Shown one piece after another: positions 2,399-54,297 of a DNA stretch of 64,000 bases (positions are counted from its first letter, which is position 1; each line of letters opens with the position of its first letter). The stretch is taken from positions 6,294-70,293 of the forward strand of contig CALABO010000008.1 in NCBI GenBank assembly GCA_937885575.1, given 5' to 3'. Position numbers and translations under genes: made by a program. The stretch comes from an uncultured Pseudomonadota bacterium. GTDB lineage: Bacteria; Pseudomonadota; Alphaproteobacteria; Rs-D84. The notes beneath the pieces were generated by a model that saw only the letters and a program-made list of their open reading frames with translations, made no database searches and was not told the DNA's origin.

Positions 2399-2716
2399 AT
2401 GTCGGTAAAACACGCAACTGACGATAATTTCACCGAATCAATTGGTGGCGCATTAACACTTGTTGACTTTTGGGCACCGTGGTGCGGACCGTGCCGTATG
2501 TTTGGCCCAATATTCGAAGGTGCATCGGACAAAATGTCGGACGTGAACTTTGTTAAATTCGAAGTTAACGAAGAAAACCGTCGCACACCAACTAAATACG
2601 GCATTCGCGGAATTCCATGCGTACTGGCATTCAAAAACGGCGAATTGATAGAGGCACGTACCGGATTAATGGACGAAGAAACACTTGCCGCATGGATTGC
2701 GGAATTAAAAGGATAA
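2399..2716 (+). CDS. trxA: Thioredoxin
   Basis: WCGPC active site. An AGGAG RBS lies upstream of ATG 2399; the track start at 2366 is an upstream extension. Confidence 0.9.
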   Translation: MSVKHATDDNFTESIGGALTLVDFWAPWCGPCRMFGPIFEGASDKMSDVNFVKFEVNEENRRTPTKYGIRGIPCVLAFKNGELIEARTGLMDEETLAAWIAELKG

Positions 2717-2719
2717 AAC

Positions 2720-3148
2720 ATGGCAAAGGCAAATTATAAAACTATTAAACTTCCACCAAAATACACACCAAAAAAATCTGAACCATATATGTGTCCGGAA
2801 CATTTGGCGTATTTTTATCAATTGCTAACTGCGCAAAAGGAAGAAATCACACGCCAAAATACGGCGGCACTAAATTCTGTGACCGCAACAACGGTTGCAA
2901 ATTCTTCGATTACGGGCGACGAATTTGATAACGCGACCGCGGAACAGGAAACATCTATGACACTGCGTATGGCGGAACGCGATAATAACTTGCTTGCCAA
3001 AATAAACAACGCACTTGACCGAATCGAAAACGGCACATTTGGATACAGTGTTATATCCGGCGATGAAATCGGCCTTTCACGTATGCTGGCGCGACCACTT
3101 GCCACCATGACAATCGAAGAACAAGAAGAACACGAAAAAAGAAAATAA
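2720..3148 (+). CDS. dksA: RNA polymerase-binding regulator DksA, Cys-free variant
   Basis: 142 aa with the coiled-coil tip motif DEFDNA (DxxDxA). The C-terminal region aligns to the DksA zinc finger, but all four Cys are replaced (GYSVISG...ATMTIEEQ). Confidence 0.7.
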   Translation: MAKANYKTIKLPPKYTPKKSEPYMCPEHLAYFYQLLTAQKEEITRQNTAALNSVTATTVANSSITGDEFDNATAEQETSMTLRMAERDNNLLAKINNALDRIENGTFGYSVISGDEIGLSRMLARPLATMTIEEQEEHEKRK

Positions 3149-3160
3149 GAAAACATAAAA

Positions 3161-3190
3161 ACAGGCGACCCAAATCGCCTGTTATTTTTT
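3161..3190. terminator. Bidirectional intrinsic terminator between dksA and the convergent 3189..3662 gene
   Basis: Hairpin ACAGGCGA-CCCAAA-TCGCCTGT, followed by TATTTTTT on the plus strand and a T-rich run on the minus strand. Confidence 0.7.
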
Positions 3191-3662
3191 ATTTCTTTGG
3201 TTGTTGAACTTCAGCAGCCAACCGCGAATACACCCCCAACTTTGCCGCTTCTATCTCGGCCGCTTTTTCTTGACGTTTTCTCTCCTCTTCCGATTTACGC
3301 AGTTTTCGTTTCGCATCCTCCTGTTCATTATACAACTTTTCAACATCACGATAAATTGATTGCACAACTTCATCGTATTTGACGTTCGGCATTTGTTTTT
3401 CCCCATACTTGAACCACTCATTTGCTAGTGGTGTCCCGTCACTGAAAGCACTGAAAGCGGCCCCCACCTTAATCCATTCAATTCCGTTTTCAATAACAGA
3501 ATACCAATTCCAGTATCTATAATCTGCTACATAATCCTTTGACCTGCCCAGCCAATTCTTTTTCTGCTTTACAACAGGAACTCTTTTATGTTCATATTCA
3601 AAAACTATGCTTATCCCTTTAGCTTTTTTCTGTTCTACAATCTCCGCAAGGGTCATTTTCAT
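3189..3662 (-). CDS. Hypothetical protein with Lys/Glu-rich C-terminal tail
   Basis: 157-aa ORF with an ATG start. No family was recognised. Trp/Tyr-rich core and a charged coiled-coil-like tail. Confidence 0.5.
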   Translation of the reverse strand: MKMTLAEIVEQKKAKGISIVFEYEHKRVPVVKQKKNWLGRSKDYVADYRYWNWYSVIENGIEWIKVGAAFSAFSDGTPLANEWFKYGEKQMPNVKYDEVVQSIYRDVEKLYNEQEDAKRKLRKSEEERKRQEKAAEIEAAKLGVYSRLAAEVQQPKK

Positions 3663-3772
3663 TTTTTATCCTTTTATTAATTAGATACTGGTCTCATAGT
3701 AACACAAAACCACACAATGTCAAGAGATTGTTGAATTTTGCTTTTTCCTTTTTACTAATTTGGATAATTATG

Positions 3773-3900
3773 ACGACACCTCCCGGCGTTCCACGCCGTA
3801 CTCCTCTGGCCAGAGGAGAATTTTGCGCTCTGGAATCAAGTTCCCCTCTGGCTAGAGGGGGGTCTCGCTGTAGCGATAGCGAAAGCGGACGGGGTGTCGC
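3773..3900 (+). repeat. Family A nested-palindromic element, full copy A1
   Basis: CGACACCTCCCGGCGTTCCACGCCGTACTCCTCTGGCCAGAGGAGAA...AAGTTCCCCTCTGGCTAGAGGGG...CGGGGTGTCGC. Homologous to 5136..5253 (inverted) and 49788..49905. Confidence 0.9.
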
Positions 3901-3930
3901 AAAACATATCTACATCTAAAACCAACAACA

Positions 3931-3960
3931 CCATAAAAAACAGGCGGGTTTTACCGCCTG
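3931..3960 (-). terminator. Intrinsic terminator downstream of tatA
   Basis: Hairpin CAGGCGG-N6-CCGCCTG, followed by a T6 run on the minus strand (and also on the plus strand). Confidence 0.7.
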
Positions 3961-3964
3961 TTTT

Positions 3965-4186
3965 TTATTTCTTTTTTTGCACCCGATGCGCCGCGGGTTT
4001 CTTTTTCGGTGCGGATTTAGAATCCGCCGCTATCGCCTTTTTATCATCAGTTTTCATTTCTTTTTTGAAAACATTCAACCCATGGGCAAGGTTCCGCATC
4101 ATACCCGGAATCTTCGCGTGGCCGAACAAAATGACCAACAGTAAAACAATAACCAGTATTTCCATCCAACCCAATCTTCCAAACAT
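3965..4186 (-). CDS. tatA: Twin-arginine translocase subunit TatA/E
   Basis: MFGRLGWMEILVIVLLLVILFG TM helix followed by an amphipathic helix. An AAGGAG RBS lies 6 nt upstream of ATG 4186; the track start at 4201 is a GTG extension. Confidence 0.85.
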   Translation of the reverse strand: MFGRLGWMEILVIVLLLVILFGHAKIPGMMRNLAHGLNVFKKEMKTDDKKAIAADSKSAPKKKPAAHRVQKKK

Positions 4187-4198
4187 ATCAAACTCCTT

Positions 4199-4229
4199 CA
4201 CTAACCACTAACACTTACACTAACCACTA
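4199..4229 (-). repeat. Family B heptamer tract B1 (GTTAGTG-like units)
   Basis: The minus strand reads TAGTGGTTAGTGTAAGTGTTAGTGGTTAGTG. The tract contains the TAG stop of the SPOR gene and abuts the tatA RBS. Confidence 0.85.
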
Positions 4230-5066
4230 TTTTGCGACATAACAATCAAGTCCATCGGACTTTGCATTGCGACAGAACCCATTTGCATCACCCGAAGACG
4301 CAAACGCAATACGCAAACGATATGTCGTCGTTCCGTTCGGCAATACCGCGGCCAATATCACGAACTGTTTGCCCACGAACAAGTTTTGATGTCCGGCGCG
4401 AATCTTTTTCTCGGCGGCTTCGGCGGCGGCGCGTGTGCCATATGAACCAAATTGCACATACCAACCACCATTTGCAACCTTTTGCGCGGCGGGCTTTGGC
4501 GCCGGTTTCGGTTTTGCCGGTGTTTTAACTTCCTTTGGTGCGGGTGCCGGAACAGGTTTCGGTGTCACAGTCGCACGCTCTGGATTAAACGTCACATCTT
4601 TTCTATCCTCTATCACACGAACATTTTGATTCGGTTGCGGCGCAACCTCCACCGGTTGTGGTGCGGGCTGAACAACCTGAACCGGTTGCGGTGCAACCTG
4701 GACGGGCTGTGGCACAGGCGCGGGCCGCATATCACCCACCGGCATTTGCTGCACAGGCATAGTTTGCACCTGTACCGGCTGTGGCACCGGCATCGGACGC
4801 GGCGCGGGCATAATCATTTCCGGTTCGCGTTCTTCGACCATAACGGGCGCACCAAGGTCAACTTCTATCGAAGACGATGAATTATTGCTTACCACGCGGA
4901 CAATGATAACGACCGCCAAAACGATAATTGCAACCCCAATCGCCAACAGCAACCAAGGCCGATGTGGCCGCGGCGTTACGAAAGGCACCGCATCAGGCAA
5001 ACCCTCGTCCGCCGTACCATCGGCATCGTCCAAATCCAAAAGTTCTAATTCTTCTGTATCACTCAT
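4227..5066 (-). CDS. SPOR domain-containing membrane protein with Pro-rich repeats
   Basis: N-terminal acidic tail, one TM helix, PQPVQV-type Pro-rich repeats, and a C-terminal SPOR-like domain (GGWYVQFGSYGTRAAAEAA...RLRIAF). Confidence 0.75.
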   Translation of the reverse strand: MSDTEELELLDLDDADGTADEGLPDAVPFVTPRPHRPWLLLAIGVAIIVLAVVIIVRVVSNNSSSSIEVDLGAPVMVEEREPEMIMPAPRPMPVPQPVQVQTMPVQQMPVGDMRPAPVPQPVQVAPQPVQVVQPAPQPVEVAPQPNQNVRVIEDRKDVTFNPERATVTPKPVPAPAPKEVKTPAKPKPAPKPAAQKVANGGWYVQFGSYGTRAAAEAAEKKIRAGHQNLFVGKQFVILAAVLPNGTTTYRLRIAFASSGDANGFCRNAKSDGLDCYVAK

Positions 5067-5104: not shown

Positions 5105-5135
5105 AAAAAACAATATCACAAAAATTATTTTTTTC

Positions 5136-5253
5136 GCGACACCCCGCCCTACAGGCACCCCTCTAGCCAGAGGGGAACTTGGGCCACAACAAGACAAGAA
5201 CAAAATTCTCCTCTGGCCAGAGGAGTACGACGTGGAACGCCGGGAGGTGTCGC
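5136..5253 (-). repeat. Family A element, full copy A2 (inverted relative to A1)
   Basis: Its reverse complement is near-identical to 49788..49905. Termini are GCGACACC...GGTGTCGC. Confidence 0.9.
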
Positions 5254-5291
5254 AATTACAAAATATCCAATTTTAATTACACATCAACAAA

Positions 5292-5435
5292 TTATTTTGT
5301 GGGACGCGCACCAAAGTTTGGTGGCACAATCAGTTTATGATTTTGTTCGACAATCGGTTCGGTTTCGCAAGACCGCGTGCACGCGCCCAACACAACCGGC
5401 ATCAACATAACAAAAGCTAAAATTATTTTTTTCAT
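5292..5435 (-). CDS. Small putative lipoprotein (47 aa; below ORF-track cutoff)
   Basis: Manual translation gives MKKIILAFVMLMPVVLGACTRSCETEPIVEQNHKLIVPPNFGARPTK with an LGAC lipobox. ATG start and TAA stop. Confidence 0.45.
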   Translation of the reverse strand: MKKIILAFVMLMPVVLGACTRSCETEPIVEQNHKLIVPPNFGARPTK

Positions 5436-5458
5436 ATCCTTTCCTTTTTTATAATTAT

Positions 5459-5480
5459 GCCCCAATCAAACGATTGGGGC
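5459..5480. terminator. Hairpin downstream of thrS (possible terminator)
   Basis: GCCCCAATC-AAAC-GATTGGGGC. The T-run is clear only on the plus strand, so its function for minus-strand thrS is uncertain. Confidence 0.35.
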
Positions 5481-5503
5481 AACGATTTTTTATCACACAG
5501 GAA

Positions 5504-7261
5504 TTATATATCCAAGTCCCTGTTCTTAATTTTACTTTTAAGGTTTTGAATAAAATCATCCAATTGGACATTAAATTCCTGTTTCCCATCACGACGTCTT
5601 ACAGATATTGTTTGCGATTCTAATTCTTTATCACCAACAATAATCATGTAAGGAATCTGTTTCAGTTGTGCATTACGTATCTTTTTCTGCATACTTTCCG
5701 AAGAATAATCTTTCTTGATACGCAAGCCCGCCGTAGCAGTTTTTATTTCTACATTTTGCAACTTTTCTGCGATACTGTCCGCGTACACTTTGCAACGGTC
5801 AGAAATCGGAATAATTACCGCATGCACCGGCGACAACCAAACCGGCAATTTTCCGGCCAAATGTTCCAACATCAGCCCCATAAACCGCCCCAAAGAACCG
5901 TAAACAGTCCGGTGAATAAGAATCGGTGTCTTCTTATTGCCATCTTTATCTATGTACACACAGTTAAAGTTTCGTGGCAATTGAAAATCCAATTGAATAG
6001 TCCCAGTTTGCCATTCACGTCCCAAACTATCAACCATTTGAATATCTAACTTTGGACCATAAAACGCACCATCTTTTTCCTTGATTCCGAATCCATTATT
6101 TCCGAATCGGTTAACCAAGATTTTTTTCAAAATGGTTTCTGCCTTGTTCCAAGTTTCAATATCACCCATAAAGTCATCAGGTCTTGTTGATAATTTGATA
6201 AAATATTTCATATCAAACAACTTATAGTAATATTGAATTATATCAATAATACGATTATATTCGTCTTCTATCATATCTTCACTGATGAAAATATGTGCAT
6301 CGTCTTGATTAAATTCATATGTTCTAAACAAGCCGTTTAAAGCCCCTGAATTTTCATAACGATAAAGCATATCTGCATCAGCCATACGCCAAGGCAAATC
6401 ATGATAACTGCGTGGTTCATGTTGGTACGCGACAATAGAATTTGGACAAGACATAGGTGCCAAAGCAAAAACATTATTGTCGTCTTCTTTGAACACAAAC
6501 ATACTATCCTTATAGTGATCCCAATGTCCACTTGTTTCATACAATTCTTTTTTGTTCATGAGTGGTGAACGGAATTCAAAATAACCGTGTTTTTCATGAT
6601 ATTCCGACCAAAAGTTATACAACTCACGATAAACAATCCACCCACCCGGCATATAGTACGGAACACCAGGCGATCTTTCATCAAAGAAAAACAAACCCAA
6701 CGCCGGCCCAATTTTTCTATGGTCGCGTTTTGCGGCTTCTTCTTGCATTTTAAGGAAGTTATCCAATTCTTCTTTACTTGCAAACGCGTCAACATAGATA
6801 CGTTGCAACATTTTATTTTTCGAATCGCCCTTCCAATACGCGCCGGCGACACTGCGAATCTTGAAACCATCACGCGGCAAATCTTTGGAACTTTCCACAT
6901 GCGGCCCGCGACACAGATCGGTAAAATCGCGGAAAGTATAAATCGACAGTTTTTCGCCCGCCGCATCGTATTCGTTCAACCATTCCATTTTATACGGCTG
7001 GTCCGCAAAGATTTTTTTCGCTTCGTCCAGGTCGACAATTTTCTGTTCAAAACGACCGTTTGATTTAATCAATTCGCGCATTTCCCGTTCAATCTTTTCA
7101 AAATCTTCTTCGGAAAAGCGATAATCGGTATCAAAGTCGTAATAGAATCCGTTTTCAATCGCCGGCCCACCCGCAAACTTTACATCCGGGTGCAGTTTTT
7201 GCACCGCCGCCGCCATCACGTGCGCCAACGAGTGCCTAATCATTTCAATTGGATATGACAT
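5504..7261 (-). CDS. thrS: Threonine--tRNA ligase (no TGS domain)
   Basis: 585 aa. It starts at the editing-domain motif RHSLAHVM (HxxxH) and also has CRGPH, a class II core and a C-terminal anticodon-binding domain. Confidence 0.9.
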   Translation of the reverse strand: MSYPIEMIRHSLAHVMAAAVQKLHPDVKFAGGPAIENGFYYDFDTDYRFSEEDFEKIEREMRELIKSNGRFEQKIVDLDEAKKIFADQPYKMEWLNEYDAAGEKLSIYTFRDFTDLCRGPHVESSKDLPRDGFKIRSVAGAYWKGDSKNKMLQRIYVDAFASKEELDNFLKMQEEAAKRDHRKIGPALGLFFFDERSPGVPYYMPGGWIVYRELYNFWSEYHEKHGYFEFRSPLMNKKELYETSGHWDHYKDSMFVFKEDDNNVFALAPMSCPNSIVAYQHEPRSYHDLPWRMADADMLYRYENSGALNGLFRTYEFNQDDAHIFISEDMIEDEYNRIIDIIQYYYKLFDMKYFIKLSTRPDDFMGDIETWNKAETILKKILVNRFGNNGFGIKEKDGAFYGPKLDIQMVDSLGREWQTGTIQLDFQLPRNFNCVYIDKDGNKKTPILIHRTVYGSLGRFMGLMLEHLAGKLPVWLSPVHAVIIPISDRCKVYADSIAEKLQNVEIKTATAGLRIKKDYSSESMQKKIRNAQLKQIPYMIIVGDKELESQTISVRRRDGKQEFNVQLDDFIQNLKSKIKNRDLDI

Positions 7262-25960: not shown

Positions 25961-26042
25961 AGAAATTTCTCCTTTTTTATTATTTATGGTCAGAGAATAG
26001 AAAAAAAAACAGCGAAAGTAAAGGAAATAGTGGCGGGTGTAA

Positions 26043-26089
26043 AGTTCCCCTCCTGTGGAGGGGTGGCGCCGAACGGCGACGGGGTGGTC
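26043..26089 (+). repeat. Family A half-element A4 (right-half type)
   Basis: AGTTCCCCTCCTGTGGAGGGGTGGCGCCGAACGGCGACGGGGTGGTC, between the P1 stop and the yajC start. Confidence 0.8.
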
Positions 26090-26094
26090 TTTTA

Positions 26095-27258
26095 TCAATT
26101 ATTCACACAAGTCTTAAACTCATCGGGGTCAGTTCTCATAAAACACGCCCGCATTTTCTCTTTGGTGATTTTTTGCATACGAACACACCTTTGTTCTTTT
26201 TTGTAATAAAATTCGTTTTCTCCATCACAATCTAAACAAGCACCATTTACACCTATTCCTTTTTTTTCTAATGATTTACCACTACCACACGGGACACATT
26301 TTTTGTTAGGCCATGTTTCAAATCCATAATTTTCATTTTTACAGCGAAATTGTTTGCAGCCCCCAACAGAAACCAATTTATGTTGTGTTTCATCGTATTT
26401 AGAATCATCCCATGATGTGCACCAATTTTGATTGGTTATACTCTCGGCACATTCCGGCGCCATTACACAATCATCATGGGTGCTATTTTCAGTATATCCC
26501 GGCGCGCACAACACTTTGTAAGAATCTTTTTTTGAAAATGCTTTTGTAATAGTATTTTTATTTGCACTAACTTTCGTTGGTCCAACAATAAGCGCATGAG
26601 GTTTTATCTCAATAACTGCTAATACCACCGAATAATGGTCATTTGTTGTAGAATCGCTAAAATTCCCCTCCGGAAGCTTATTTGAACGCCCCTGATAACC
26701 ATCAAGATAATCAAAAACATCTATCTCAGATGTAATCCGACCATCTTGTTCCCCACTAAGAATTCTATATTTACCATCCAAAGGATTATTTAATTCTGTT
26801 TTATAATCGATACTCAAACCGGAACAGTCATATTCATGTTTTTCACACTTAGTACCAGACCAGCCAGATTCACACACAACCTGTCGCTTATATTCGTCAC
26901 TATCAAAGAAATCAATCCATCGTGGTTGCCCTGTTCCTGACTTATTTGTCCATGCCGCTTGCATTTGTGTCATGCCGAAACACCCACCATGTTCATAGAT
27001 TTCGTGTGCAATAACCGGGATAATAGAACCTTCATCATCGCTACTTCCATATCCAAAAGTGCCGGTTTTATCATTGTAAAAACTCGTTGGAGAAATTTTT
27101 TCGCTCACCTTGGTCGGATAGGCAAAACTATTTGACCACCCCCACGCATTTTGTATTCTGTCTGCTACCACATTAGGATGTTCATATGTACGATTCTCTG
27201 CACCCATCGCACCGCCGGCCAACATTACACCGCAAATTGCAACCATGATTTTTTTCAA
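26095..27258 (-). CDS. Secreted Cys-rich hypothetical protein (P1)
   Basis: TTG start at 27258 with an AGGGAGGA RBS. Signal peptide LKKIMVAICGVMLAGGAMGA. About 24 Cys, concentrated in the C-terminal third. No family recognised. Confidence 0.6.
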   Translation of the reverse strand: MKKIMVAICGVMLAGGAMGAENRTYEHPNVVADRIQNAWGWSNSFAYPTKVSEKISPTSFYNDKTGTFGYGSSDDEGSIIPVIAHEIYEHGGCFGMTQMQAAWTNKSGTGQPRWIDFFDSDEYKRQVVCESGWSGTKCEKHEYDCSGLSIDYKTELNNPLDGKYRILSGEQDGRITSEIDVFDYLDGYQGRSNKLPEGNFSDSTTNDHYSVVLAVIEIKPHALIVGPTKVSANKNTITKAFSKKDSYKVLCAPGYTENSTHDDCVMAPECAESITNQNWCTSWDDSKYDETQHKLVSVGGCKQFRCKNENYGFETWPNKKCVPCGSGKSLEKKGIGVNGACLDCDGENEFYYKKEQRCVRMQKITKEKMRACFMRTDPDEFKTCVNN

Positions 27259-27283
27259 TGAATCCTCCCTTGGTATCAAAACA

Positions 27284-27470
27284 AAAACCACCGAATTACT
27301 TCAAGTGGTTGGAGGTTAACGACAATTTTAGCGAAATTGTGCGCTTATTTTATCGGGAATCCCCGATATTATTCACGGCCCTCCAACCACTTTCGGTTGG
27401 AGTTTTCGTCGACCGAAATCGACATCGCTAAAAAGGGTCGTTACACCCCATCGACGGAACACCCATCGAC
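27284..27470 (-). promoter_or_regulatory. Family D conserved structured 5' leader, copy 1 (candidate cis-regulatory RNA)
   Basis: Three blocks are shared with 44652..44830 in the same orientation and position relative to a secreted-protein gene. It has hairpins H1-H3 with alternative pairings. Confidence 0.45.
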
Positions 27471-27515
27471 AATTTTACTTTAATAAATTATAAAACCGAA
27501 AAGCAAGAAGAAATT

Positions 27516-27544
27516 GTTAGTGGTAAGTGTTAGTGGCTAGTGAG
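27516..27544 (+). repeat. Family B heptamer tract B2
   Basis: GTTAGTGGTAAGTGTTAGTGGCTAGTGAG. Confidence 0.85.
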
Positions 27545-27560
27545 AAATTCCAGAGTGCAA

Positions 27561-27611
27561 AGTTCCCATCCTGTGGAGGGGTGGCCGCGAACGCGGACGG
27601 GGTGGTCTTTC
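27561..27611 (+). repeat. Family A half-element A5a (right-half type)
   Basis: AGTTCCCATCCTGTGGAGGGGTGGCCGCGAACGCGGACGGGGTGGTCTTTC. Confidence 0.8.
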
Positions 27612-27637
27612 ATAAATATAAAATTTCCGGAAAACGC

Positions 27638-27684
27638 GAAAGACCACCTCCCCCTTCGGGTACTCCTCCGCAGGAGGAGAACTT
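27638..27684 (+). repeat. Family A half-element A5b (left-half type)
   Basis: GAAAGACCACCTCCCCCTTCGGGTACTCCTCCGCAGGAGGAGAACTT. Its terminus is the inverted repeat of the A5a terminus. Confidence 0.8.
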
Positions 27685-27691
27685 AGTCCGC

Positions 27692-27716: not shown

Positions 27717-27750
27717 ACACTAACACTAACCACTTACACTACCTACTAAC
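27716..27750 (-). repeat. Family B heptamer tract B3
   Basis: The plus strand reads CACACTAACACTAACCACTTACACTACCTACTAAC. The tract contains the mutL TAG stop (27746..27748). Confidence 0.85.
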
Positions 27751-29503
27751 TCCTCTCAAACCATCCGTCAATTTGTGTAATCGGGATAAACTTATAAACC
27801 GGGCGGCCATGATTGCATTCCGCGCCTCGTTCTGTTTTTTCAATATCACGCAACAACGCGTTCATTTGTTCCATATTCAACTTTTGCCCCGCACGCACCG
27901 AATGATGACACGCATAGTTCGCAAGTTTAAGATGCAATTTTTCTTTTATCTGACTTGAATGTCCGTATGCGCGAACCTCGTCCGCAATCGCGTGCAATGC
28001 GGCGACCCAGTCCATATCCCAATCTGCGGGCTTTTCAAAAATCGCAATTGCATCATCACCAAACGAATCGATGGCAAGTCCGCTTTCGCGCAAATCATCC
28101 GCAATCGACAACACCGCAACAACATCTTCGGCGCGCAGCCGCACCACAATCGGTGTCAGCAATGGTTGCGATTTTATCGCATGCGCGCGCAATTTTTCAT
28201 ATGTAATCCGTTCATGCGCCGCGTGTTGGTCCACGACAACCAAACTGTCCGCCGTCGCGGCAAGAATATATTTATTCGCAATTTGCCCAATCACGCGCCC
28301 AAGTGGCATATTATCAAAAATATCATCAACATTTTCTTGCACCGGTGCGGTTTCCATTTTTTGTATCGCACCAAAATCAGACATTAAACTTTGTGCAAAC
28401 AGATTTTGTGTTTTATTCGGCGAATGCACCATTGGTGCCGATGACACAGGGCGCAAGTGCGGTGTTAAAATCGGTGCATTATTAAATGAAATCTTTTCCG
28501 CAAAATTTTGCGCAGGCACCGCGGGCGCATCCACCATATTTTGGGCCAACACATCGCGCAACGCCTTGATAATAAACGCGCGCACATGCGACGGTTCCAA
28601 AAAGTGCACATCGTTTTTCGTTGGTGACACATTGACATCTACATTCGCCGGCGGCAAAGTCAAATATAACGCGCACAACGGAAATTCCCGTGCATGCATA
28701 ACGTCCATATACGCGGCACGCAGCGCACCAACCAAAACTTTATCTTTGACCGGCCGACCATTTACAAACAAAAATTGATCCACCGATGACGCCCGCCGCA
28801 GTGTCGGTTCGGAAATATAACCAGATAACTTCATCGCACCCGACGAAGATTCCGCGGAAACCGCGCGCATACGCCCGCGCACATCATCACCCATCACCGC
28901 CACGATTCGGTCAATCAGCGGTTGCCCCTTTGGAAAACGCCATTTGTTATTCAGCACAAACCCAACATCCGTTCGCGCCATACTAAGGCGTTTTATTACG
29001 TCCAAAATCGCCATAGTTTCAACACGGTCGCTGCGCAAAAATTTCAGTCGCGCCGGCGTTTTTGCAAACAAATTCTGCACACGAATACGCGTTCCGCTTT
29101 GCCAATCGGACGGTTTTATTTCACCACTATTACAATCCAAATGCCAACCATTTGCGTCCGCACCATTGCATGTATCAATCGACATATCGGACACAGATGC
29201 AATCGACGGCAATGCTTCGCCACGGAATCCCATAAAATTTATATTCATCAAATCATCATCGGGCAACTTTGATGTCGCATGCCGCATAGTGCAATTTTTC
29301 AAATCGTCCGCGGACATCCCGCATCCATCATCGACAACATTTATCAATGTTCGTCCGCCATCAACAACATCAACAATAATCTGATTTGCACCCGCGTCCA
29401 GCGCATTTTCAACCAATTCTTTGACAACACTTGCGCCATTTTCAACAACTTCGCCGGCGGCGATTTGATTGACCAAATAATCGGGCAAAAGCCGTATGGA
29501 CAA
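27746..29503 (-). CDS. mutL: DNA mismatch repair protein MutL
   Basis: N-terminal GHKL ATPase motifs (QIAAGEVVENGASVVKELVENALDAG). TTG start at 29503 with a GGGGG RBS. Confidence 0.9.
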   Translation of the reverse strand: MSIRLLPDYLVNQIAAGEVVENGASVVKELVENALDAGANQIIVDVVDGGRTLINVVDDGCGMSADDLKNCTMRHATSKLPDDDLMNINFMGFRGEALPSIASVSDMSIDTCNGADANGWHLDCNSGEIKPSDWQSGTRIRVQNLFAKTPARLKFLRSDRVETMAILDVIKRLSMARTDVGFVLNNKWRFPKGQPLIDRIVAVMGDDVRGRMRAVSAESSSGAMKLSGYISEPTLRRASSVDQFLFVNGRPVKDKVLVGALRAAYMDVMHAREFPLCALYLTLPPANVDVNVSPTKNDVHFLEPSHVRAFIIKALRDVLAQNMVDAPAVPAQNFAEKISFNNAPILTPHLRPVSSAPMVHSPNKTQNLFAQSLMSDFGAIQKMETAPVQENVDDIFDNMPLGRVIGQIANKYILAATADSLVVVDQHAAHERITYEKLRAHAIKSQPLLTPIVVRLRAEDVVAVLSIADDLRESGLAIDSFGDDAIAIFEKPADWDMDWVAALHAIADEVRAYGHSSQIKEKLHLKLANYACHHSVRAGQKLNMEQMNALLRDIEKTERGAECNHGRPVYKFIPITQIDGWFERS

Positions 29504-35310: not shown

Positions 35311-35316
35311 TTGTTT

Positions 35317-35360
35317 CTCACTAACCACTCACACTAGCCACTCACACTAGCCACTAACAC
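35317..35360 (-). repeat. Family B heptamer tract B4
   Basis: The plus strand reads CTCACTAACCACTCACACTAGCCACTCACACTAGCCACTAACAC. Confidence 0.85.
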
Positions 35361-35422
35361 TTTTTGTTGAAAATCCAAAAATATAGTGTATTCTATACCT
35401 TTAGGGCAAAAAAGGGCTAAAT

Positions 35423-46244: not shown

Positions 46245-46267
46245 AAAACGACCGAATCGCAAAAAAT

Positions 46268-46297
46268 GGTTAGTGTTAATGTAAGTGGTTAGTGGTA
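46268..46297 (+). repeat. Family B heptamer tract B7
   Basis: GGTTAGTGTTAATGTAAGTGGTTAGTGGTA. Confidence 0.85.
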
Positions 46298-49745: not shown

Positions 49746-49787
49746 TCGCCACTTCCAACAAAGTCGGTAATTTCTATGACAAGATTA

Positions 49788-49905
49788 GCGACACCTCCCG
49801 GCGTTCCACGCCGTACTCCTCTGGCCAGAGGAGAACTTTGTTCTCGTCCTGTTGCAGTCCAAGTTCCCCTCTGGCTAGAGGGGTGCCCGCAGGGCGGGGT
49901 GTCGC
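49788..49905 (+). repeat. Family A element, full copy A3
   Basis: GCGACACCTCCCGGCGTTCCACGCCGTACTCCTCTGGCCAGAGGAGAAC...AAGTTCCCCTCTGGCTAGAGGGGTGCCCGCAGGGCGGGGTGTCGC. Confidence 0.9.
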
Positions 49906-49929
49906 AAAAAACGCGGGGCGACGCCCCGC
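49906..49929 (-). terminator. Intrinsic terminator downstream of yebC
   Basis: Minus-strand hairpin GCGGGGCG-T-CGCCCCGC followed by GTTTTTT. Confidence 0.7.
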
Positions 49930-49930
49930 G

Positions 49931-49961
49931 CACTAGCACTGACCACTTACACTAACCACTA
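49931..49961 (-). repeat. Family B heptamer tract B8
   Basis: The plus strand reads CACTAGCACTGACCACTTACACTAACCACTA. The tract contains the yebC TAG stop (49959..49961). Confidence 0.85.
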
Positions 49962-50675
49962 ATTTGCGCCGGTAAACACCTTTTGCACATCGTCATTATC
50001 GTCCAACGCGTCAACCAGGCGTTCAACCTTGTCCCATGTTTCTTCGTCCACGTCCACCGGCATATTCGGAACCCATGTCAATTCCGCATTTTCCGGTTCG
50101 CCCAAAACATCGGCAATCTTTTTCTGCACATTCATAAAGTCATCAGGTTTGGTTGTGATAATAAATCCCTCGTCAGTTTTTTCCAAATTATCGGCATCCG
50201 CATCCATAATAATTTCCATCATTTCATCTTCAGTTTTGCCAACGGATGTCGGATAGAAAATTTGCCCAACGCGAGTAAACATAAACGCGACACTGCCCTC
50301 TTCGCCCATATTACCGCCGTGCTTGGAAAAAATATTCCGCACCTCTGGCACAGTGCGCCGCGGGTTGTCGGTCAGCGCCTCTACAATAATCGGCACCGCA
50401 CCAGGGCCGTAACCTTCGTACCGCACCGCCACATAACTTTCGGTGTTTGCACCCGACGCTTTATCAATTGCGCGTTTAATATTATCGTTCGGCATAGAAT
50501 TCTTGCGCGCCTGCAAAATTGCAAGCCGCAACCGCGGGTTATTGTCCGGATTCTTGTCGCCCAGTTTCGCCGCCATCGTGATTTCGCGTGCAAGTTTCGT
50601 GAACAATCCACTGCGTGCCGCGTCGGCAAGACCCTTTTTATGTTGAATGTTGTGCCATTTGCTATGTCCGCTCAT
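49959..50675 (-). CDS. yebC: YebC/PmpR family DNA-binding transcriptional regulator
   Basis: The start is at ATG 50675 (MSGHSKWHNIQHKKG, canonical N-terminus). Confidence 0.9.
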   Translation of the reverse strand: MSGHSKWHNIQHKKGLADAARSGLFTKLAREITMAAKLGDKNPDNNPRLRLAILQARKNSMPNDNIKRAIDKASGANTESYVAVRYEGYGPGAVPIIVEALTDNPRRTVPEVRNIFSKHGGNMGEEGSVAFMFTRVGQIFYPTSVGKTEDEMMEIIMDADADNLEKTDEGFIITTKPDDFMNVQKKIADVLGEPENAELTWVPNMPVDVDEETWDKVERLVDALDDNDDVQKVFTGAN

Positions 50676-51303: not shown

Positions 51304-52626
51304 ATGAATAACAACGACACAATCTTTGCATTATCATCTGGGCATGGGAAATCCGGCGTTGCGGTGATTCGCATATCGGGCAACAATTTACACGATTTTG
51401 CAAAAAAAATTATTGGCCGTACGCCAGTACCCCGACATGCGTATTTCACAAACTTGCGCGATGACAATGGTGAAATTATTGACCAATGCGTTGTTATTTA
51501 TTTTGCCGCGCCGCACAGTTTCACCGGCACAGACATCATTGAAATTCAGTGCCACGGCGCGCCGGCGGTGATAAATAAAATCTTTGAATTTTTGCGCGGG
51601 CATAATATGCGGGTCGCCACGCCCGGCGAATTTTCGCGCCGCGCATTTTACAACGGCAAAATGGATTTGTCGGATGTAGATGGACTAATCGCGTTGCTTG
51701 ATGCCCAGACGGACAAACAGCGCGCCGCGGCCCTGCGTTCCATGATGGGCGGCGACAGTGCCGTCTATGAAAATTGGCGCGACCAAATGTTGGAAATATC
51801 CGCATACGCCGCCGCAATGACGGACTATGACGCCGACGATTTACCGCCAAACATTTCTGATATAATTTTGGAACATATAAAAACGCTCTATACGGCGGTT
51901 TCCGGCGTATTGGGCAATTACAAAGTTTCACGTGCAATAATGTGCGGAATAAATATCGCAATCGTTGGCGAAACAAATGTCGGAAAATCTTCGTTATTCA
52001 ATCGCATCGTTGGCGCAAACCGCGCCATAGTATCCGATATCCCCGGCACAACGCGCGATGTCGTGTCCGCACAAATGGACATTGACGGATACATGGTAAA
52101 TTTATCTGATACGGCCGGCCTGCGCAATACGGTGGATTTTGTGGAAAAAATCGGAATTGAACGAACAAATACCGAAATCGCCAACGCCGATATAGTTTTA
52201 CATGTCATCGATGCCACTAGTTCCCCTTCGCCAGCGAAGGGGTGGCGGGTAGCACCTGACGGGGTAGTGGAAATTCTAATTGTAAATAAATCTGACACAA
52301 TCGATTCACGCGACATACGCGGCGCAATCTATGTTTCCGCCAAGACTGGTGCGGGCTTGCCGGAACTTATGCACGAAATCCGGAACCGAATCGCCGAAAT
52401 CACAAACAACGGCGAAAGCACGGTCATGATAAACGCACGCACATACGACCTGTTGATGACCGTGCGCGATGAATTGTTTGCGGCATTGAACAATTTTAAT
52501 GGCGACTATGATATTTTATCTGAACAGGTGCGATACGCGGCGGACGCAATTGGACGAATACTCGGCACAATCGGCACCGCCGAAATACTTGATAAGACCT
52601 TTTCACAATTGTGTTTGGGAAAATAA
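51304..52626 (+). CDS. mnmE: tRNA modification GTPase MnmE (carries an in-frame repeat insertion)
   Basis: N-terminal domain IFALSSGHGKSGVAVIRISG, G domain GETNVGKSS/DTAG/NKSD and a C-terminal CLGK. ATG 51304. Confidence 0.9.
   Translation: MNNNDTIFALSSGHGKSGVAVIRISGNNLHDFAKKIIGRTPVPRHAYFTNLRDDNGEIIDQCVVIYFAAPHSFTGTDIIEIQCHGAPAVINKIFEFLRGHNMRVATPGEFSRRAFYNGKMDLSDVDGLIALLDAQTDKQRAAALRSMMGGDSAVYENWRDQMLEISAYAAAMTDYDADDLPPNISDIILEHIKTLYTAVSGVLGNYKVSRAIMCGINIAIVGETNVGKSSLFNRIVGANRAIVSDIPGTTRDVVSAQMDIDGYMVNLSDTAGLRNTVDFVEKIGIERTNTEIANADIVLHVIDATSSPSPAKGWRVAPDGVVEILIVNKSDTIDSRDIRGAIYVSAKTGAGLPELMHEIRNRIAEITNNGESTVMINARTYDLLMTVRDELFAALNNFNGDYDILSEQVRYAADAIGRILGTIGTAEILDKTFSQLCLGK
52219..52270 (+). 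repeat. Family A half-element A6 embedded in frame in mnmE
   Basis: AGTTCCCCTTCGCCAGCGAAGGGGTGGCGGGTAGCACCTGACGGGGTAGTGG has the same architecture as 26043..26089 and 27561..27611. It encodes SSPSPAKGWRVAPDGVV between the G3 and G4 motifs. Confidence 0.75.
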
Positions 52627-52661
52627 GTGTTAGTGGTTAGTGTTAGTGTAAGTGGTTAGTG
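52627..52661 (+). repeat. Family B heptamer tract B9
   Basis: GTGTTAGTGGTTAGTGTTAGTGTAAGTGGTTAGTG immediately after the mnmE TAA. It has TAG/TAA in all three frames. Confidence 0.9.
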
Positions 52662-52685
52662 CGGGTGCGAATGCACCCGTTTTTT
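52662..52685 (+). terminator. Intrinsic terminator after mnmE
   Basis: CGGGTGC-GAAT-GCACCCG followed by TTTTTT. Confidence 0.8.
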
Positions 52686-52687
52686 AT

Positions 52688-52717
52688 AACTAACCACTAG
52701 CCAATTACACTAATCAC
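52688..52717 (-). repeat. Family B heptamer tract B10
   Basis: The plus strand reads AACTAACCACTAGCCAATTACACTAATCAC. The tract contains the TGA stop of the acyl-CoA ligase gene (52714..52716). Confidence 0.8.
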
Positions 52718-54297
52718 TCTTTCCTATCTGGATATTTGCCATCAATCAAATTCTGACGCACGATGTGGTGTTTGACCTTTTGCGTGCTGGTCATCGGCAG
52801 GGGTTCGGTCGTCATGGCATAGTGCGTCACCCATTTATAGGACGCGACCTTTTTATTCGCCGCCGCAATCGCCGCCGACAATTGTTCCATGGTCATACCC
52901 TCTTCCACGCTAAACACCCCGTATGCGACGGTTTTATCCTTTACCCGATGTTCAAAGACCGCAACATTTTTCACGCCAGGAATCGTGATAAACAGACCTT
53001 CCAGTTCGTCCGGATAAACATTTTTACCACTGTCCAAAACAATCACCTGTTTCTTGCGACCGGCAAAGTGCAATTCGCCGTTTTTATCCATCGACACCAT
53101 ATCGCCGGTATTAAAGAATCCGCGGTCATCGAATGCCTGTTTATTCGCATCGTCATTATTTAGATACCCATTGAAAATCTGATTCCCGCGCAGCCATAAA
53201 ATACCAACACCGTCTTCATTTTTATCGCGAATTTCAACCTCGTTATTCGTGGTCGGCGCACCAAAGGCGAACGGAATCCGCCCCTTGCACGGTTTGGAAA
53301 TGCAAATTGGCCCGACCGTTTCGGTCATACCATAGCCCTGAATAAACCCAAGGCCCAGCGCAACAAAGAAATTTTCAATTTCGGGTTTTGTCGCCGCACC
53401 GCCGGCAATCATCAACTTTACGCGGCCGCCGAACACATCCAAAACCGGCTTTGTCACCATATCCACCAACTTGCGCAGGCCGATTTTCTTCAGCAAATCC
53501 GCATTTTTCAACACGAACGAAAACAGCCACCATTTATGCTGTGACTTTACACCGTCAATTATCTTATTACGAAAAACCTCAAACAACCGTGGCACCGCCG
53601 GAATAACATGCGGGCGATAGCGTTTGAAATCCGCCAAAATTTCCTTTGGATTGACGGTCGGTTGCAACAACACACCCGCGCCGTATTGCAATGTCGCAAG
53701 TATTTCCACCGCAAACCCGAAAATATGATACATTGGCAAAAATCCATACATGACATCGCCAACTTCAAACCATTCGCGCATATCCAACAACGAATTTGCA
53801 CATTCCAACAAATTATAGTGCGAAAGTGGCACAACCTTTGGCGTGCCGGTCGAACCCGATGTGAACGACAATGTTGCGATATCCGTCGGCTTTAATTCCG
53901 CCGGTTTCAAATCCGGATTTTCCGCTTCGTCCGGCGCCGTAATATCAACAAACTGAAACACATCGGTTTTATAAAAGAACGATTTTTCCGCGCAGACATA
54001 TTTGCACTTTGTAATTTGCGCCATATTATCGTATTCGAACGGCGTCAAATTCGTATCCAGCAACAGCACCGTCCCACCCAAATACCAAATCGCAAACAGC
54101 GTTATCGGAAACGCCGGTATATTGTGCGACAAAATTCCAACCACATCGCCCGGCTTCACACCTAAGGAGTGCAAAGTCGCCGCGCGCGCCCGCACCATCC
54201 GCATAAAGTCCGAAAACGTGACATTTTCGCGCACCAAATATATGCCGTTCGGCCATTTCTTAACCGCACTTTCCAAAAATTGAAACATATTGTTCAT
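52714..54297 (-). CDS. AMP-dependent synthetase / long-chain fatty acid--CoA ligase
   Basis: AMP-binding motif SFTSGSTGTPKVV and the later TGD motif (FFNTGDMV). Confidence 0.8.
   Translation of the reverse strand: MNNMFQFLESAVKKWPNGIYLVRENVTFSDFMRMVRARAATLHSLGVKPGDVVGILSHNIPAFPITLFAIWYLGGTVLLLDTNLTPFEYDNMAQITKCKYVCAEKSFFYKTDVFQFVDITAPDEAENPDLKPAELKPTDIATLSFTSGSTGTPKVVPLSHYNLLECANSLLDMREWFEVGDVMYGFLPMYHIFGFAVEILATLQYGAGVLLQPTVNPKEILADFKRYRPHVIPAVPRLFEVFRNKIIDGVKSQHKWWLFSFVLKNADLLKKIGLRKLVDMVTKPVLDVFGGRVKLMIAGGAATKPEIENFFVALGLGFIQGYGMTETVGPICISKPCKGRIPFAFGAPTTNNEVEIRDKNEDGVGILWLRGNQIFNGYLNNDDANKQAFDDRGFFNTGDMVSMDKNGELHFAGRKKQVIVLDSGKNVYPDELEGLFITIPGVKNVAVFEHRVKDKTVAYGVFSVEEGMTMEQLSAAIAAANKKVASYKWVTHYAMTTEPLPMTSTQKVKHHIVRQNLIDGKYPDRKE

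Follow-up and report, generated by a model that had tools for sequence, protein, structure and literature searches.

The 64,000-nt window analyzed here (positions 6,294 to 70,293 of contig CALABO010000008.1, from an uncultured alphaproteobacterium of the Rs-D84 lineage) contains an mnmE gene, encoding the tRNA modification GTPase MnmE, which carries one copy of a structured DNA repeat within its reading frame. The gene itself is intact. The Pfam domains TrmE_N (2.8e-37), MnmE_helical (3e-32) and MMR_HSR1 (3.5e-25) were all recognized on the 440-residue open reading frame (ORF), and the solved MnmE structures 1xzp (1.2e-71) and 9hip (9.7e-71) were matched as well. The G1 (GETNVGKSS, residue 222), G3 (DTAG, 269) and G4 (NKSD, 328) motifs and the C-terminal CLGK (437) were preserved. 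The gene is under purifying selection despite the insert, with a ratio of nonsynonymous to synonymous substitutions (dN/dS) of 0.05-0.10 against eight orthologues. This ratio was calculated outside both insert regions of mnmE, and was alike whether two insert-bearing genes or an insert-bearing and an insert-free gene were compared.

The insert belongs to a repeat family whose unit of about 45-55 nt follows the plan A(A/G)GTTCCCC, hairpin 1, GGGGTGGC, hairpin 2 and GACGGGGTGGT. The mnmE copy (G+C content 67%) contained all of these parts. A structure-aware scan gave hairpin 1 eight base pairs with no mismatch, while hairpin 2 was short in the window and formed a perfect GGGT/ACCC stem in the alleles of loci L001-L003. 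To avoid circularity, the covariance model of the family (R1) was built from 45 copies on unrelated metagenome contigs and contained no window sequence. The mnmE copy matched this model at 51.6 bits (E~8e-16) over 52216-52268, covering model positions 1-53 of 53. It was the third-best match in the window, behind the units at 26040-26088 (65.7 bits, E 7e-21) and 27558-27606 (53.9 bits), and the sole match in a coding region. The pattern GTTCCCN{6,24}GGGGTGGC was found three times in the window, against an expectation of 0.01. The mnmE segment is a full-length member of the repeat family, far beyond chance resemblance. The single-strand fold of the 52-nt copy by itself was unremarkable (z = -0.35), so the structural evidence for the unit comes from covariation across copies. 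We also noted that hairpin 1, AGTTCCCC-TTCG-CCAG-CGAA-GGGG, is similar to the CRISPR repeat of type I-E, GAGTTCCCCGCGCCAGCGGGGATAAACCG. The copies occur singly or as inverted pairs, with no arrays or spacers. A CRISPR-repeat explanation was rejected on these grounds, and the likeness was treated as coincidence.

The covariation was strong. Box 1, AGTTCCCC, was invariant in 45 of the 45 aligned copies, and helix 1 was paired in 100% of the family. The two hairpins together were 97.7% paired, compared with about 50% when their 3' partners were slid out of register, and double-sided changes numbered 95 in the 45 copies against 29.5 in shuffles. All four Watson-Crick pair types occurred at each position of hairpin 2. 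A set of 108 distinct copies included 58 versions of hairpin 1 and 79 of hairpin 2, and almost every one was self-complementary.

The peptide read from the mnmE copy is ..DATSSPSPAKGWRVAPDGVVEIL.., which lies between the DTAG of G3 and the NKSD of G4. The local reading is ..HVID-ATSSPSPAKGWRVAPDGVV-EILIVNKSD.., and the peptides spanning the insert are ..HVIDATSSPSPAK / GWR / VAPDGVVEILIVNK.. An AlphaFold2 model of the window MnmE, computed from a 53-sequence alignment, had a mean predicted local distance difference test (pLDDT) score of 65, with most of the G domain at 70-90. Residues 308-319 scored below 50 and were flanked by strands 297-302 and 322-327, so that the insert was modeled as a disordered loop between strand β4 and the G4 strand. 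In the MnmE proteins of E. coli and T. maritima, helix α3 (about 25 residues) is found where the Enterousia baseline has about 11 residues; the Enterousia G domain was already trimmed at the colonized place (window 52186-52296). In Ras-like G domains the face of the α3 interval is remote from the nucleotide pocket and from the switch regions, and by analogy this may hold for the insert in this MnmE as well. The original prediction, made from the DNA letters alone, had described a half-element with boxes and two hairpins, lying in frame within an undisrupted mnmE and encoding a surface loop of variable length between G3 and G4. All of these features were recovered.

We compared the site among 120 MnmE orthologues with 69-96% identity. 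The genomes closest to the window were metagenome-assembled genomes (MAGs) from rumen and gut, belonging to Candidatus Enterousia and other uncultured Alphaproteobacteria. Genomes of the Enterousia lineage, in the order Rs-D84, are smaller than 1 Mb (PMC12306168). A short loop was present in 85 of the 120 orthologues (empty alleles), for example HVIDINGSVTPVAENEILV, HVIDINGS-VTPVAE-NEILV and TPNGKPTTIVDG. The remaining 35 (filled alleles) had longer, mutually different sequences at exactly the same position. The closest empty alleles were 92-93% identical to the window protein. The usual Enterousia loop has 11 residues, INGSVTPVAEN. The DNA of the empty allele (site string ..GATATCAACGGTTCGGTCACACCG..) reads GAT ATC AAC GGT TCG GTC ACA CCG GTT GCA GAA AAT GAA, while the window reads GAT GCC ACT AGT TCC CCT TCG CCA GCG AAG GGG TGG CGG GTA GCA CCT GAC GGG GTA GTG GAA. 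Thus, 11 codons were replaced by 19, a net change of +8 residues (+24 nt). An insertion of about 17 residues had been predicted; the insertion was supported by the orthologues, but not its size, and the 52-nt segment is not a multiple of three.

The comparison also bore on the two objections that the original prediction had raised against itself, namely an ancestral peptide with a chance likeness to the repeat and an assembly error. The empty orthologues lacked the peptide, and its DNA matched intergenic repeats both in the same genome and elsewhere. The VAP of the window is not the ancestral VAP, because its codons make up hairpin 2 of the element (GGGTAGCACC in the window, GGGTAGCACCC in L001-L003 and GGGTAACACCC in the intergenic copy of L155). 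The same insert type occurred in separate JGI, ENA, Logan and NCBI assemblies (P0001-P0008, L001-L003), which excludes an assembly artefact. Alleles of one insert type differed in the hairpin loop (CCA vs CTG) and at a synonymous site, and the stem was kept.

At least eight insert forms were seen at the window site, and the same site was occupied in MnmE proteins of only 57-61% identity (L070, L036). The mnmE loop is a recurrently occupied, polymorphic hot spot, with filled and empty alleles interleaved on the tree. Since the inserts differ in frame and architecture, it is certain that at least three independent insertion events took place at the site. The flanking DNA was 96-100% identical to that of empty alleles, and 98-100% identical up to about 15 nt from the insert. 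In a sliding-window comparison, mnmE positions 496-900 of the window were 98-100% identical to both the empty L005 and L006 and the differently filled L004 and L019. The drop in identity was restricted to the insert edges, indicating that the insert polymorphism is recent. Over its whole length, mnmE appeared as a fine-scale mosaic: when the window was set against L001-L008 and L019, stretches of 98-100% identity alternated with stretches of 78-84%. Such a pattern is indicative of homologous recombination occurring frequently between strains of Enterousia.

A second in-frame hot spot was located near residue 40, in the N-terminal domain of MnmE, and was filled in 21 of the 120 orthologues. The insert there is a unit of a sister subtype (..LVLPFAGEGVRRGTPGGSG..; LPFAGEGVRRGTPGGSG and variants), and 8 codons were replaced by 22. 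In the window and 1.44 Mb of related loci taken together, no gene other than mnmE had in-frame copies.

Scanning metagenome contigs for exact matches to the three-box pattern returned at least 120 stretches with at least 137 copies. The G+C content of the contigs ranged from 28 to 71% among the matches listed, and the copies were often clustered with alternating orientation. A full unit (44.1 bits) was found on a plasmid of the cultured Sphingopyxis granuli (Sphingomonadales). This was the only match in the plasmid collection, and the viral contigs gave none, so carriage by phages or plasmids is unsupported. Rfam at gathering thresholds, applied to the window and 10 metagenome loci, gave no match and no intron family, which means that the unit does not belong to any curated RNA family and that no intron is present. 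High-G+C copies with identical flanks were considered as a possible single-copy origin locus, and this was rejected because they proved to be ordinary inverted pairs from repeatedly sampled species. No REP-associated tyrosine transposase (RAYT) or other transposase was seen beside the densest clusters (L097, L103, L146 and L158).

Many copies on these contigs are buried far within long ORFs. All 10 ORFs tested were genuine genes, with Pfam domains on both sides of the unit; they encode a UvrD/PcrA helicase (three units), PriA, a DUF255 thioredoxin-like protein, QueA, a 2-hydroxyacid dehydrogenase, an FAD oxidoreductase, a P-type ATPase, SppA, another MnmE and GlmM. The three units of the UvrD/PcrA-like helicase (L083, 3862-5790) had differing orientations. 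All three forward frames were used, giving SSPL.., (K/E)FPS.. and (K/T)VPL.. peptides, as were all three reverse frames, giving HPV..HPS..EGN, TPS..TPP.EG. and PPR..PPLHRRG. The unit core was free of stop codons in 64-83% of copies per frame, roughly as a G+C content of 65% predicts, so the idea that the units are designed to be translatable is not required. In a low-G+C ORF (L132, 2-1117), tandem units of alternating orientation produced a repetitive peptide region.

The units are the terminal inverted repeats of elements that carry a gene for a DUF559 nuclease. In L045, from an Enterousia relative, a unit on the plus strand (5111-5156) starts directly past the mnmE stop codon, and is followed by a DUF559 ORF of 115 codons (5165-5512) and a unit on the minus strand (5522-5571). 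This was the only DUF559 (PF04480) gene in the 1.44 Mb of mnmE-anchored loci. Units also bracket DUF559 genes in L105, L192, L149, L097, L201-L208, L210-L212 and L214-L220; those of L201 and L210 are of the sister subtype, and in L214-L220 the gene is bracketed exactly, inside a perfect long inverted repeat. In L214 (2330-2990) the perfect inverted repeats around DUF559 are at least 120 nt long and run into the 3' ends of both neighboring genes. The orientation of DUF559 relative to these neighbors was flipped between L214 and L215 at the same coordinates, which suggests inversion by recombination between the repeats. In L105, the entire cassette of unit, DUF559 and unit lies in frame within queA (2501-4009), flanked by an 8-bp direct repeat, GGTGGTTC; the empty queA site reads ..ATGTTGGTGGTTCTCCGC.. 

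For an unbiased test, DUF559 homologues were collected by protein similarity alone, contigs were retrieved for three of them, picked for length only, and the R1 scan was run. On the 20 contigs (57 kb) chosen by DUF559 similarity, all 29 significant R1 matches fell within about 250 nt of the gene. Unit-derived peptides were present in 13 of 17 DUF559 homologues with N- or C-terminal extensions. A search of 1.84 billion cluster representatives yielded 21,261 DUF559 relatives at E <= 1e-3, and among the best 150 of these, 28 had the domain embedded in a larger protein, over 60 residues away from either end. A crude regular expression detected unit signatures at the domain edges in 22 of these 28 embedded cases, compared with 1 of 229 control windows. 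Pfam analysis of ten long DUF559 representatives revealed HsdS, type IIG/ISP restriction-modification enzymes, DNA methylases, fumarase and phosphoglycerate mutase. No Hint/intein domain was found in the queA host of L105 or in ten DUF559-carrying host proteins, which contained host domains and DUF559 only. It was also striking how common restriction-modification genes are among the hosts. The closest solved structure to the nuclease was 3hrl (1e-17), and the protein has E, D, H and D residues of the catalytic type, with the string IEIDGWSHD. DUF559 is placed in the Vsr/DUF559 clade of PD-(D/E)XK nucleases (PMC3424549). This clade includes the EDxHD homing endonuclease I-Bth0305I (PMC3239194), and a DUF559 gene has been assigned to the EDxHD family (PMC9403480).

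Nine further half-units are present in the window, all of them intergenic (Table 1). The best-scoring one, at 26040, is situated between the stop codon of a minus-strand gene (26095-27291) and a yajC-like gene. In the two-half element at 27558, the plus-strand unit is of the same subtype as the mnmE copy; the two units scored 53.9 and 24.7 bits with R1, and the whole folded into one long hairpin (-67.2 kcal/mol, z = -7.6). Its outer ends are AAGTT and its inner ends GGTGGTC. This is the polarity of the units that bracket DUF559 elsewhere, and the element therefore looks like a gene-less derivative similar to a MITE (a miniature transposable element with inverted repeats). The pair at 49788 has the opposite arrangement, with outer ends CGACACC and inner ends AAGTT, and its fold had an energy of -75.2 kcal/mol (z = -8.1). 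The interval 49746-49905 was missing at the orthologous site in L004 and L013. No target-site duplication was seen at the filled/empty intergenic pair, where the extra DNA amounts to 160 nt, 43 nt of it non-repeat. The pair at 5130 is 92% complementary to that at 49788, from which it is 44.5 kb distant, and a large inversion of the chromosome could potentially arise between the two.

Some apparent copies were discarded. Matches to AAGTTCCCC at 24245 and 60824 were attributed to chance, there being no hairpins at these places, and seemingly genic copies at window 26043, L001 832, L005 4093 and L008 3702 turned out to be intergenic, upstream of yajC or recA. A MAFFT alignment of the ten half-units of the window was poor because the hairpins vary in length, and the structure-aware scan and the covariance model were used instead. 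The window also contains a second, unrelated repeat family of blocks rich in ACTAAC or GTTAGTG (e.g. CACTAACCACTAACACTTACACTAACCACTA), which are inverted and flank terminator hairpins; one such pair brackets the terminator directly 3' of the mnmE stop codon.

Table 1. Features of the mnmE locus, copies of the repeat in the window, filled mnmE alleles and hosts of embedded DUF559
Feature	Position or locus	Strand	Remarks
mnmE (tRNA modification GTPase), 440 aa, intact	51304..52626	+	Pfam, PDB matches, dN/dS
mnmE half-unit of the repeat family	52219..52270	+	exact string found; 52 nt
Box 1 of mnmE copy, AGTTCCCC	52219-52226	+	CCCC opens hairpin 1
Hairpin 1 of mnmE copy, CCCCTTCG-CCAG-CGAAGGGG	52223-52242	+	8-bp stem, loop CCAG
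Box 2 of mnmE copy, GGGGTGGC	52239-52246	+	exact match to family box 2
Hairpin 2 of mnmE copy, GGGT-AGC-ACC(T)	about 52247-52256	+	weak, 3-4 bp
Box 3 of mnmE copy, GACGGGGTAGT	52258-52268	+	10/11 match to family box 3, GACGGGGTGGT
Replaced stretch, 19 codons A304-V322 (ATSSPSPAKGWRVAPDGVV)	52213..52269	+	codon comparison with empty L005, L006, L009 and filled L001-L004, L019
Residue-40 site	51403-51426	+	empty in window
Residue-40 site, filled	L002, L003, L005, L019; L070 5350-5399		about 110-160 nt into mnmE in the first four loci
Solo half-unit, subtype of the mnmE copy	26040..26088	+	intergenic
Two-half element	27558..27686	both	unit (+) 27558-27606, spacer of about 39 nt 27607-27645, unit (-) 27646-27686
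Inverted pair, 124 nt	49788..49911	both	intergenic; unit (-) 49805-49840, unit (+) 49859-49903
Inverted pair, 124 nt	5130..5253	both	intergenic; units 5138-5182 (-), 5201-5236 (+)
Inverted pair	3774..3898	both	intergenic; unit (-) 3790-3825, unit (+) 3836-3898 with enlarged second hairpin
ACTAAC/GTTAGTG blocks	4199-4236, 27515-27547, 27718-27755, 35314-35378, 46261-46294, 49929-49968, 52626-52663, 52691-52721
Filled allele, +19 codons	L001-L003		window form plus 33 nt
Filled allele, +17 codons	L004		different unit; ancestral VAPVAEN kept
Filled allele, +32 codons	L019		complete two-half element
Filled alleles, +35 and +49 aa over 432-aa baseline	P0009, P0033		two-half element, other arrangement; the +49 aa of P0033 includes filled site 1 as well
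Filled allele, clean 15-aa insert	L138		another reading frame, EFPSCGGVARSDGVV
DUF559 embedded in queA	L105
DUF559 embedded in fumarase	P0287
DUF559 embedded in phosphoglycerate mutase	P0371
DUF559 embedded in HsdS	P0249, P0271
DUF559 embedded in type IIG/ISP restriction-modification enzymes	P0267, P0273, P0286, P0315

Taken together, these results led us to regard the mnmE segment as a solo terminal-repeat unit of a selfish DNA family, fixed in frame in the mnmE G domain of a Candidatus Enterousia strain, with a probability of about 0.8. In this family, two inverted units make up hairpin elements of 110-130 nt, and in the complete form they enclose a DUF559 nuclease gene of about 115 codons. 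Since the units are G+C-rich and mostly stop-free in six frames, read-through as a Pro/Gly/Ser-rich peptide is possible for any copy with a net length divisible by three. The mnmE copy replaced the 11-residue loop between strand β4 (VLHVID) and the G4 strand (ILIVNKSD) by 19 residues. The new loop is modeled as disordered and apart from the G1-G4 motifs, so that the GTPase would still work and selection would keep the frame open. Movement of the element is presumably the work of the DUF559 nuclease, through break repair akin to homing or through a cut-and-paste process. The copy in mnmE, most likely a solo end-repeat, is probably a remnant that has decayed or is incomplete and did not insert by itself, and its peptide is probably a passenger without function.

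A broader reading, which we hold only tentatively and rate somewhat below even odds, is that the family represents a previously undescribed selfish element made up of the DUF559 gene of about 115 codons and two inverted, structured, translatable repeats, read through in the host protein, with the mnmE half-unit as its footprint. Such an element would colonize housekeeping and restriction-modification genes in frame in genomes of widely varying G+C content, and would leave behind gene-less pairs and solo repeats whose behavior matches that of the Rickettsia palindromic elements. No intron or intein would be needed, because translation of the host gene would run through the entire element, the repeats then encoding Pro/Gly/Ser-rich linkers.

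Several points weigh against the solo terminal-repeat reading and the events proposed for it. There is no DUF559 gene in the 64-kb window or inside any mnmE allele found, and the link between the mnmE copy and the nuclease is thus one of family, not of locus. No consistent target-site duplication was observed, with none at the mnmE junctions or at the intergenic copies of the window; the 8-bp repeat at queA in L105 is the sole case. For a 52-nt unit to yield a net gain of 24 nt, about 33 nt of target must have been lost with it, an outcome that simple insertion models do not predict. Fitch parsimony on the neighbor-joining (NJ) protein tree gave at least 27 state changes, but this count of gains and losses overstates the independent insertions and is treated as an upper bound, because the gene is a mosaic and the NJ tree is weak and poorly resolved. 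The sliding-window comparison revealed no extended co-conversion tract around the insert, so that classical homing from a divergent donor is not favored. Finally, translation of the insert peptide is a prediction from the reading frame.

How the solo unit reached its site can be explained in more than one way. Repeated transposition of gene-less units, MITE-like or solo, is a possible route to which we assign about one chance in three; insertion would be targeted, or random and followed by a tolerance filter, and the hot spots would reflect what the protein tolerates. The L138 insert lies in another frame and L019 carries a two-half element with different hairpins, so these two cannot share a single origin. 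Both mnmE sites are loops, in-frame copies in other genes use all six frames, and there is a loose likeness between the empty site GGTTCGGTC and the unit ends AGTTC...GGTC. However, the occupation of mnmE alone, at two sites, in the window and 1.44 Mb is not obviously predicted by random insertion with a filter, and neither a transposase nor a regular target-site duplication was found. A homing cycle seems slightly less probable still and must be called doubtful. It supposes that a unit-DUF559-unit cassette at the mnmE site spread by cleavage and repair, and that the nuclease and one unit were then lost in frame. Occupation of the same two sites across MnmE proteins of 57-96% identity would fit such a cycle, as would the interleaving of filled and empty alleles in a gene that is a recombination mosaic. 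The inserts also form a size series of +32, +19, +17 and +8 codons, in which taking 33 nt from the L001 form gives the window form; complete DUF559 elements lie in frame in queA, fumarase and phosphoglycerate mutase (iPGM), and a Vsr-like homing endonuclease family is known (PMC3239194). Yet no DUF559-bearing mnmE allele was found, the longest orthologue listed being 481 aa, and there is neither a long co-conversion tract beside the insert nor an intron or intein to render a large insertion harmless. Moreover, the hairpin sequences of L019, L004 and the window differ, and these alleles are therefore not a simple deletion series of one insert. The size series and the complete cassettes in other genes favor the route by homing and decay, while the missing mnmE::DUF559 allele, the differing hairpins and the lack of a co-conversion tract favor repeated insertion. 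Neither route accounts for the target DNA, about 33 nt, that was lost along with the insertion at both mnmE sites.

As a further explanation, the peptide or the mRNA hairpin might have been put to use, as a flexible surface loop modulating the MnmE-MnmG interaction or as a structure affecting translation or mRNA stability. The insert is kept in frame across several lineages, and among alleles of one insert type it is the hairpin loop and a synonymous site that vary, the stem being kept. We consider this improbable, given that most orthologues, some of them 92-93% identical, do without the insert, that inserts at the same site are unrelated as peptides and that the modeled loop is disordered. 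Conservation of the stem is moreover a property of the DNA across the family, intergenic copies included. An ancestral loop with a chance resemblance, or an assembly or binning artefact, is effectively refuted. T. maritima MnmE reads DASSPLD at the aligned position, and VAP is a motif shared by empty (VAPVAE) and filled (VAPDGV) alleles. Against this stand the full-length match to a model built from unrelated sequences, the origin of the window VAP codons in the family hairpin 2, the 85 of 120 orthologues that do not have the segment and the recurrence of the insert type in assemblies from four sources.

To our knowledge, in-frame colonization of essential genes by palindromic repeats has had essentially one textbook example, the Rickettsia palindromic elements (RPEs), and we know of no identified mechanism by which they move. 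The present family, which is presumably unrelated, behaves likewise in another lineage of Alphaproteobacteria with reduced genomes and in many other bacteria. The events are recent, with filled and empty alleles on nearly identical backgrounds, so that the junctions are open to direct study, and the physical tie between the repeats and a small Vsr-like nuclease gene offers a concrete, testable candidate for mobilization. If the proposal is correct, the element would supply, for one family, the never-identified autonomous partner of in-frame palindromic repeats. That the DUF559 cassette represents a novel type of selfish element lodged in frame is a substantial possibility. Apparently, a widespread mobile element that carries DUF559 and often lies in frame in genes has remained undescribed: the searchable literature, which leaves out most subscription journals, held no description of the repeat or of the DUF559 architecture, and a search with the box sequences returned unrelated primer matches only. 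In practical terms, the repeat peptides (SSP..G....DGVV, HP....HPS.EGN and frame variants) and the embedded DUF559 domains will skew the gene calls, the domain architectures and the alignments of metagenome catalogues, and the mnmE hot spots provide a natural strain marker for Enterousia populations.

Several known systems share some of these features. As with EDxHD homing genes such as I-Bth0305I (PMC3239194) and inteins, a gene for a small predicted nuclease of the Vsr clade occupies defined positions in conserved genes, is present or absent among close strains and leaves decayed remnants. The intein likeness extends to several hosts whose own protein contains the nuclease as a stretch in its interior, translated along with the rest. 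However, there is no group I/II intron or Hint/intein domain here and hence no splicing out. The insert stays in the protein, flanked by repeat-encoded Pro/Gly/Ser-rich peptides, and many copies are intergenic. The likeness to MITEs lies in a gene-less element whose ends match those of a longer gene-carrying one (window 27558-27686 compared with L045 and L214), and some MITEs form in-frame fusions with host ORFs (PMC10969869). Here, however, the product of the gene-carrying form is a nuclease of about 115 aa and not a recognized transposase, target-site duplications are not consistent, and the inverted repeats are themselves two-hairpin modules.

Repetitive extragenic palindromic (REP) sequences and their doublets (REPINs) are imperfect palindromes of about 45 nt with a 5' GTAG, mobilized by RAYT (Y1/HUH) transposases. 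The present units resemble them in size and imperfect symmetry, in the conserved hairpin foot and covarying stems, and in occurring as singles and inverted doublets, mostly in intergenic positions near terminators. Doublets of the REPIN type are present in the window at 27558-27686 and 49788-49911. In contrast, the consensus here starts with A(A/G)GTTCCCC and has no 5' GTAG, copies also lie within coding sequence, and the gene between inverted units is a DUF559 PD-(D/E)XK nuclease, with no Y1/HUH gene beside the clusters examined.

The closest parallel in behavior is with the RPEs, palindromic selfish repeats found between genes and in frame in housekeeping genes (Ogata et al. 2000, summarized in PMC10969869), for which that review gives no mode of movement. 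The original prediction had likened the mnmE insert to RPEs while assigning it to a different element family, and the comparison is apt as a description of behavior. In both cases, palindromic repeats in a reduced alphaproteobacterial genome lie between genes and in frame, and add short peptides compatible with the fold to hosts that stay functional. RPEs measure about 100-150 bp, compared with 52 nt for the mnmE half-unit and 124-130 nt for the two-half elements of the window, which form long hairpins. The two families are set apart by their host, which here is Candidatus Enterousia (order Rs-D84) and not Rickettsia, and by the described features of the unit, which has 52 nt, 67% G+C, three boxes and two hairpins. 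The present family further spans contigs of 28-71% G+C among the matches listed and a Sphingomonadales plasmid, and it has a candidate autonomous partner, the DUF559 nuclease gene.

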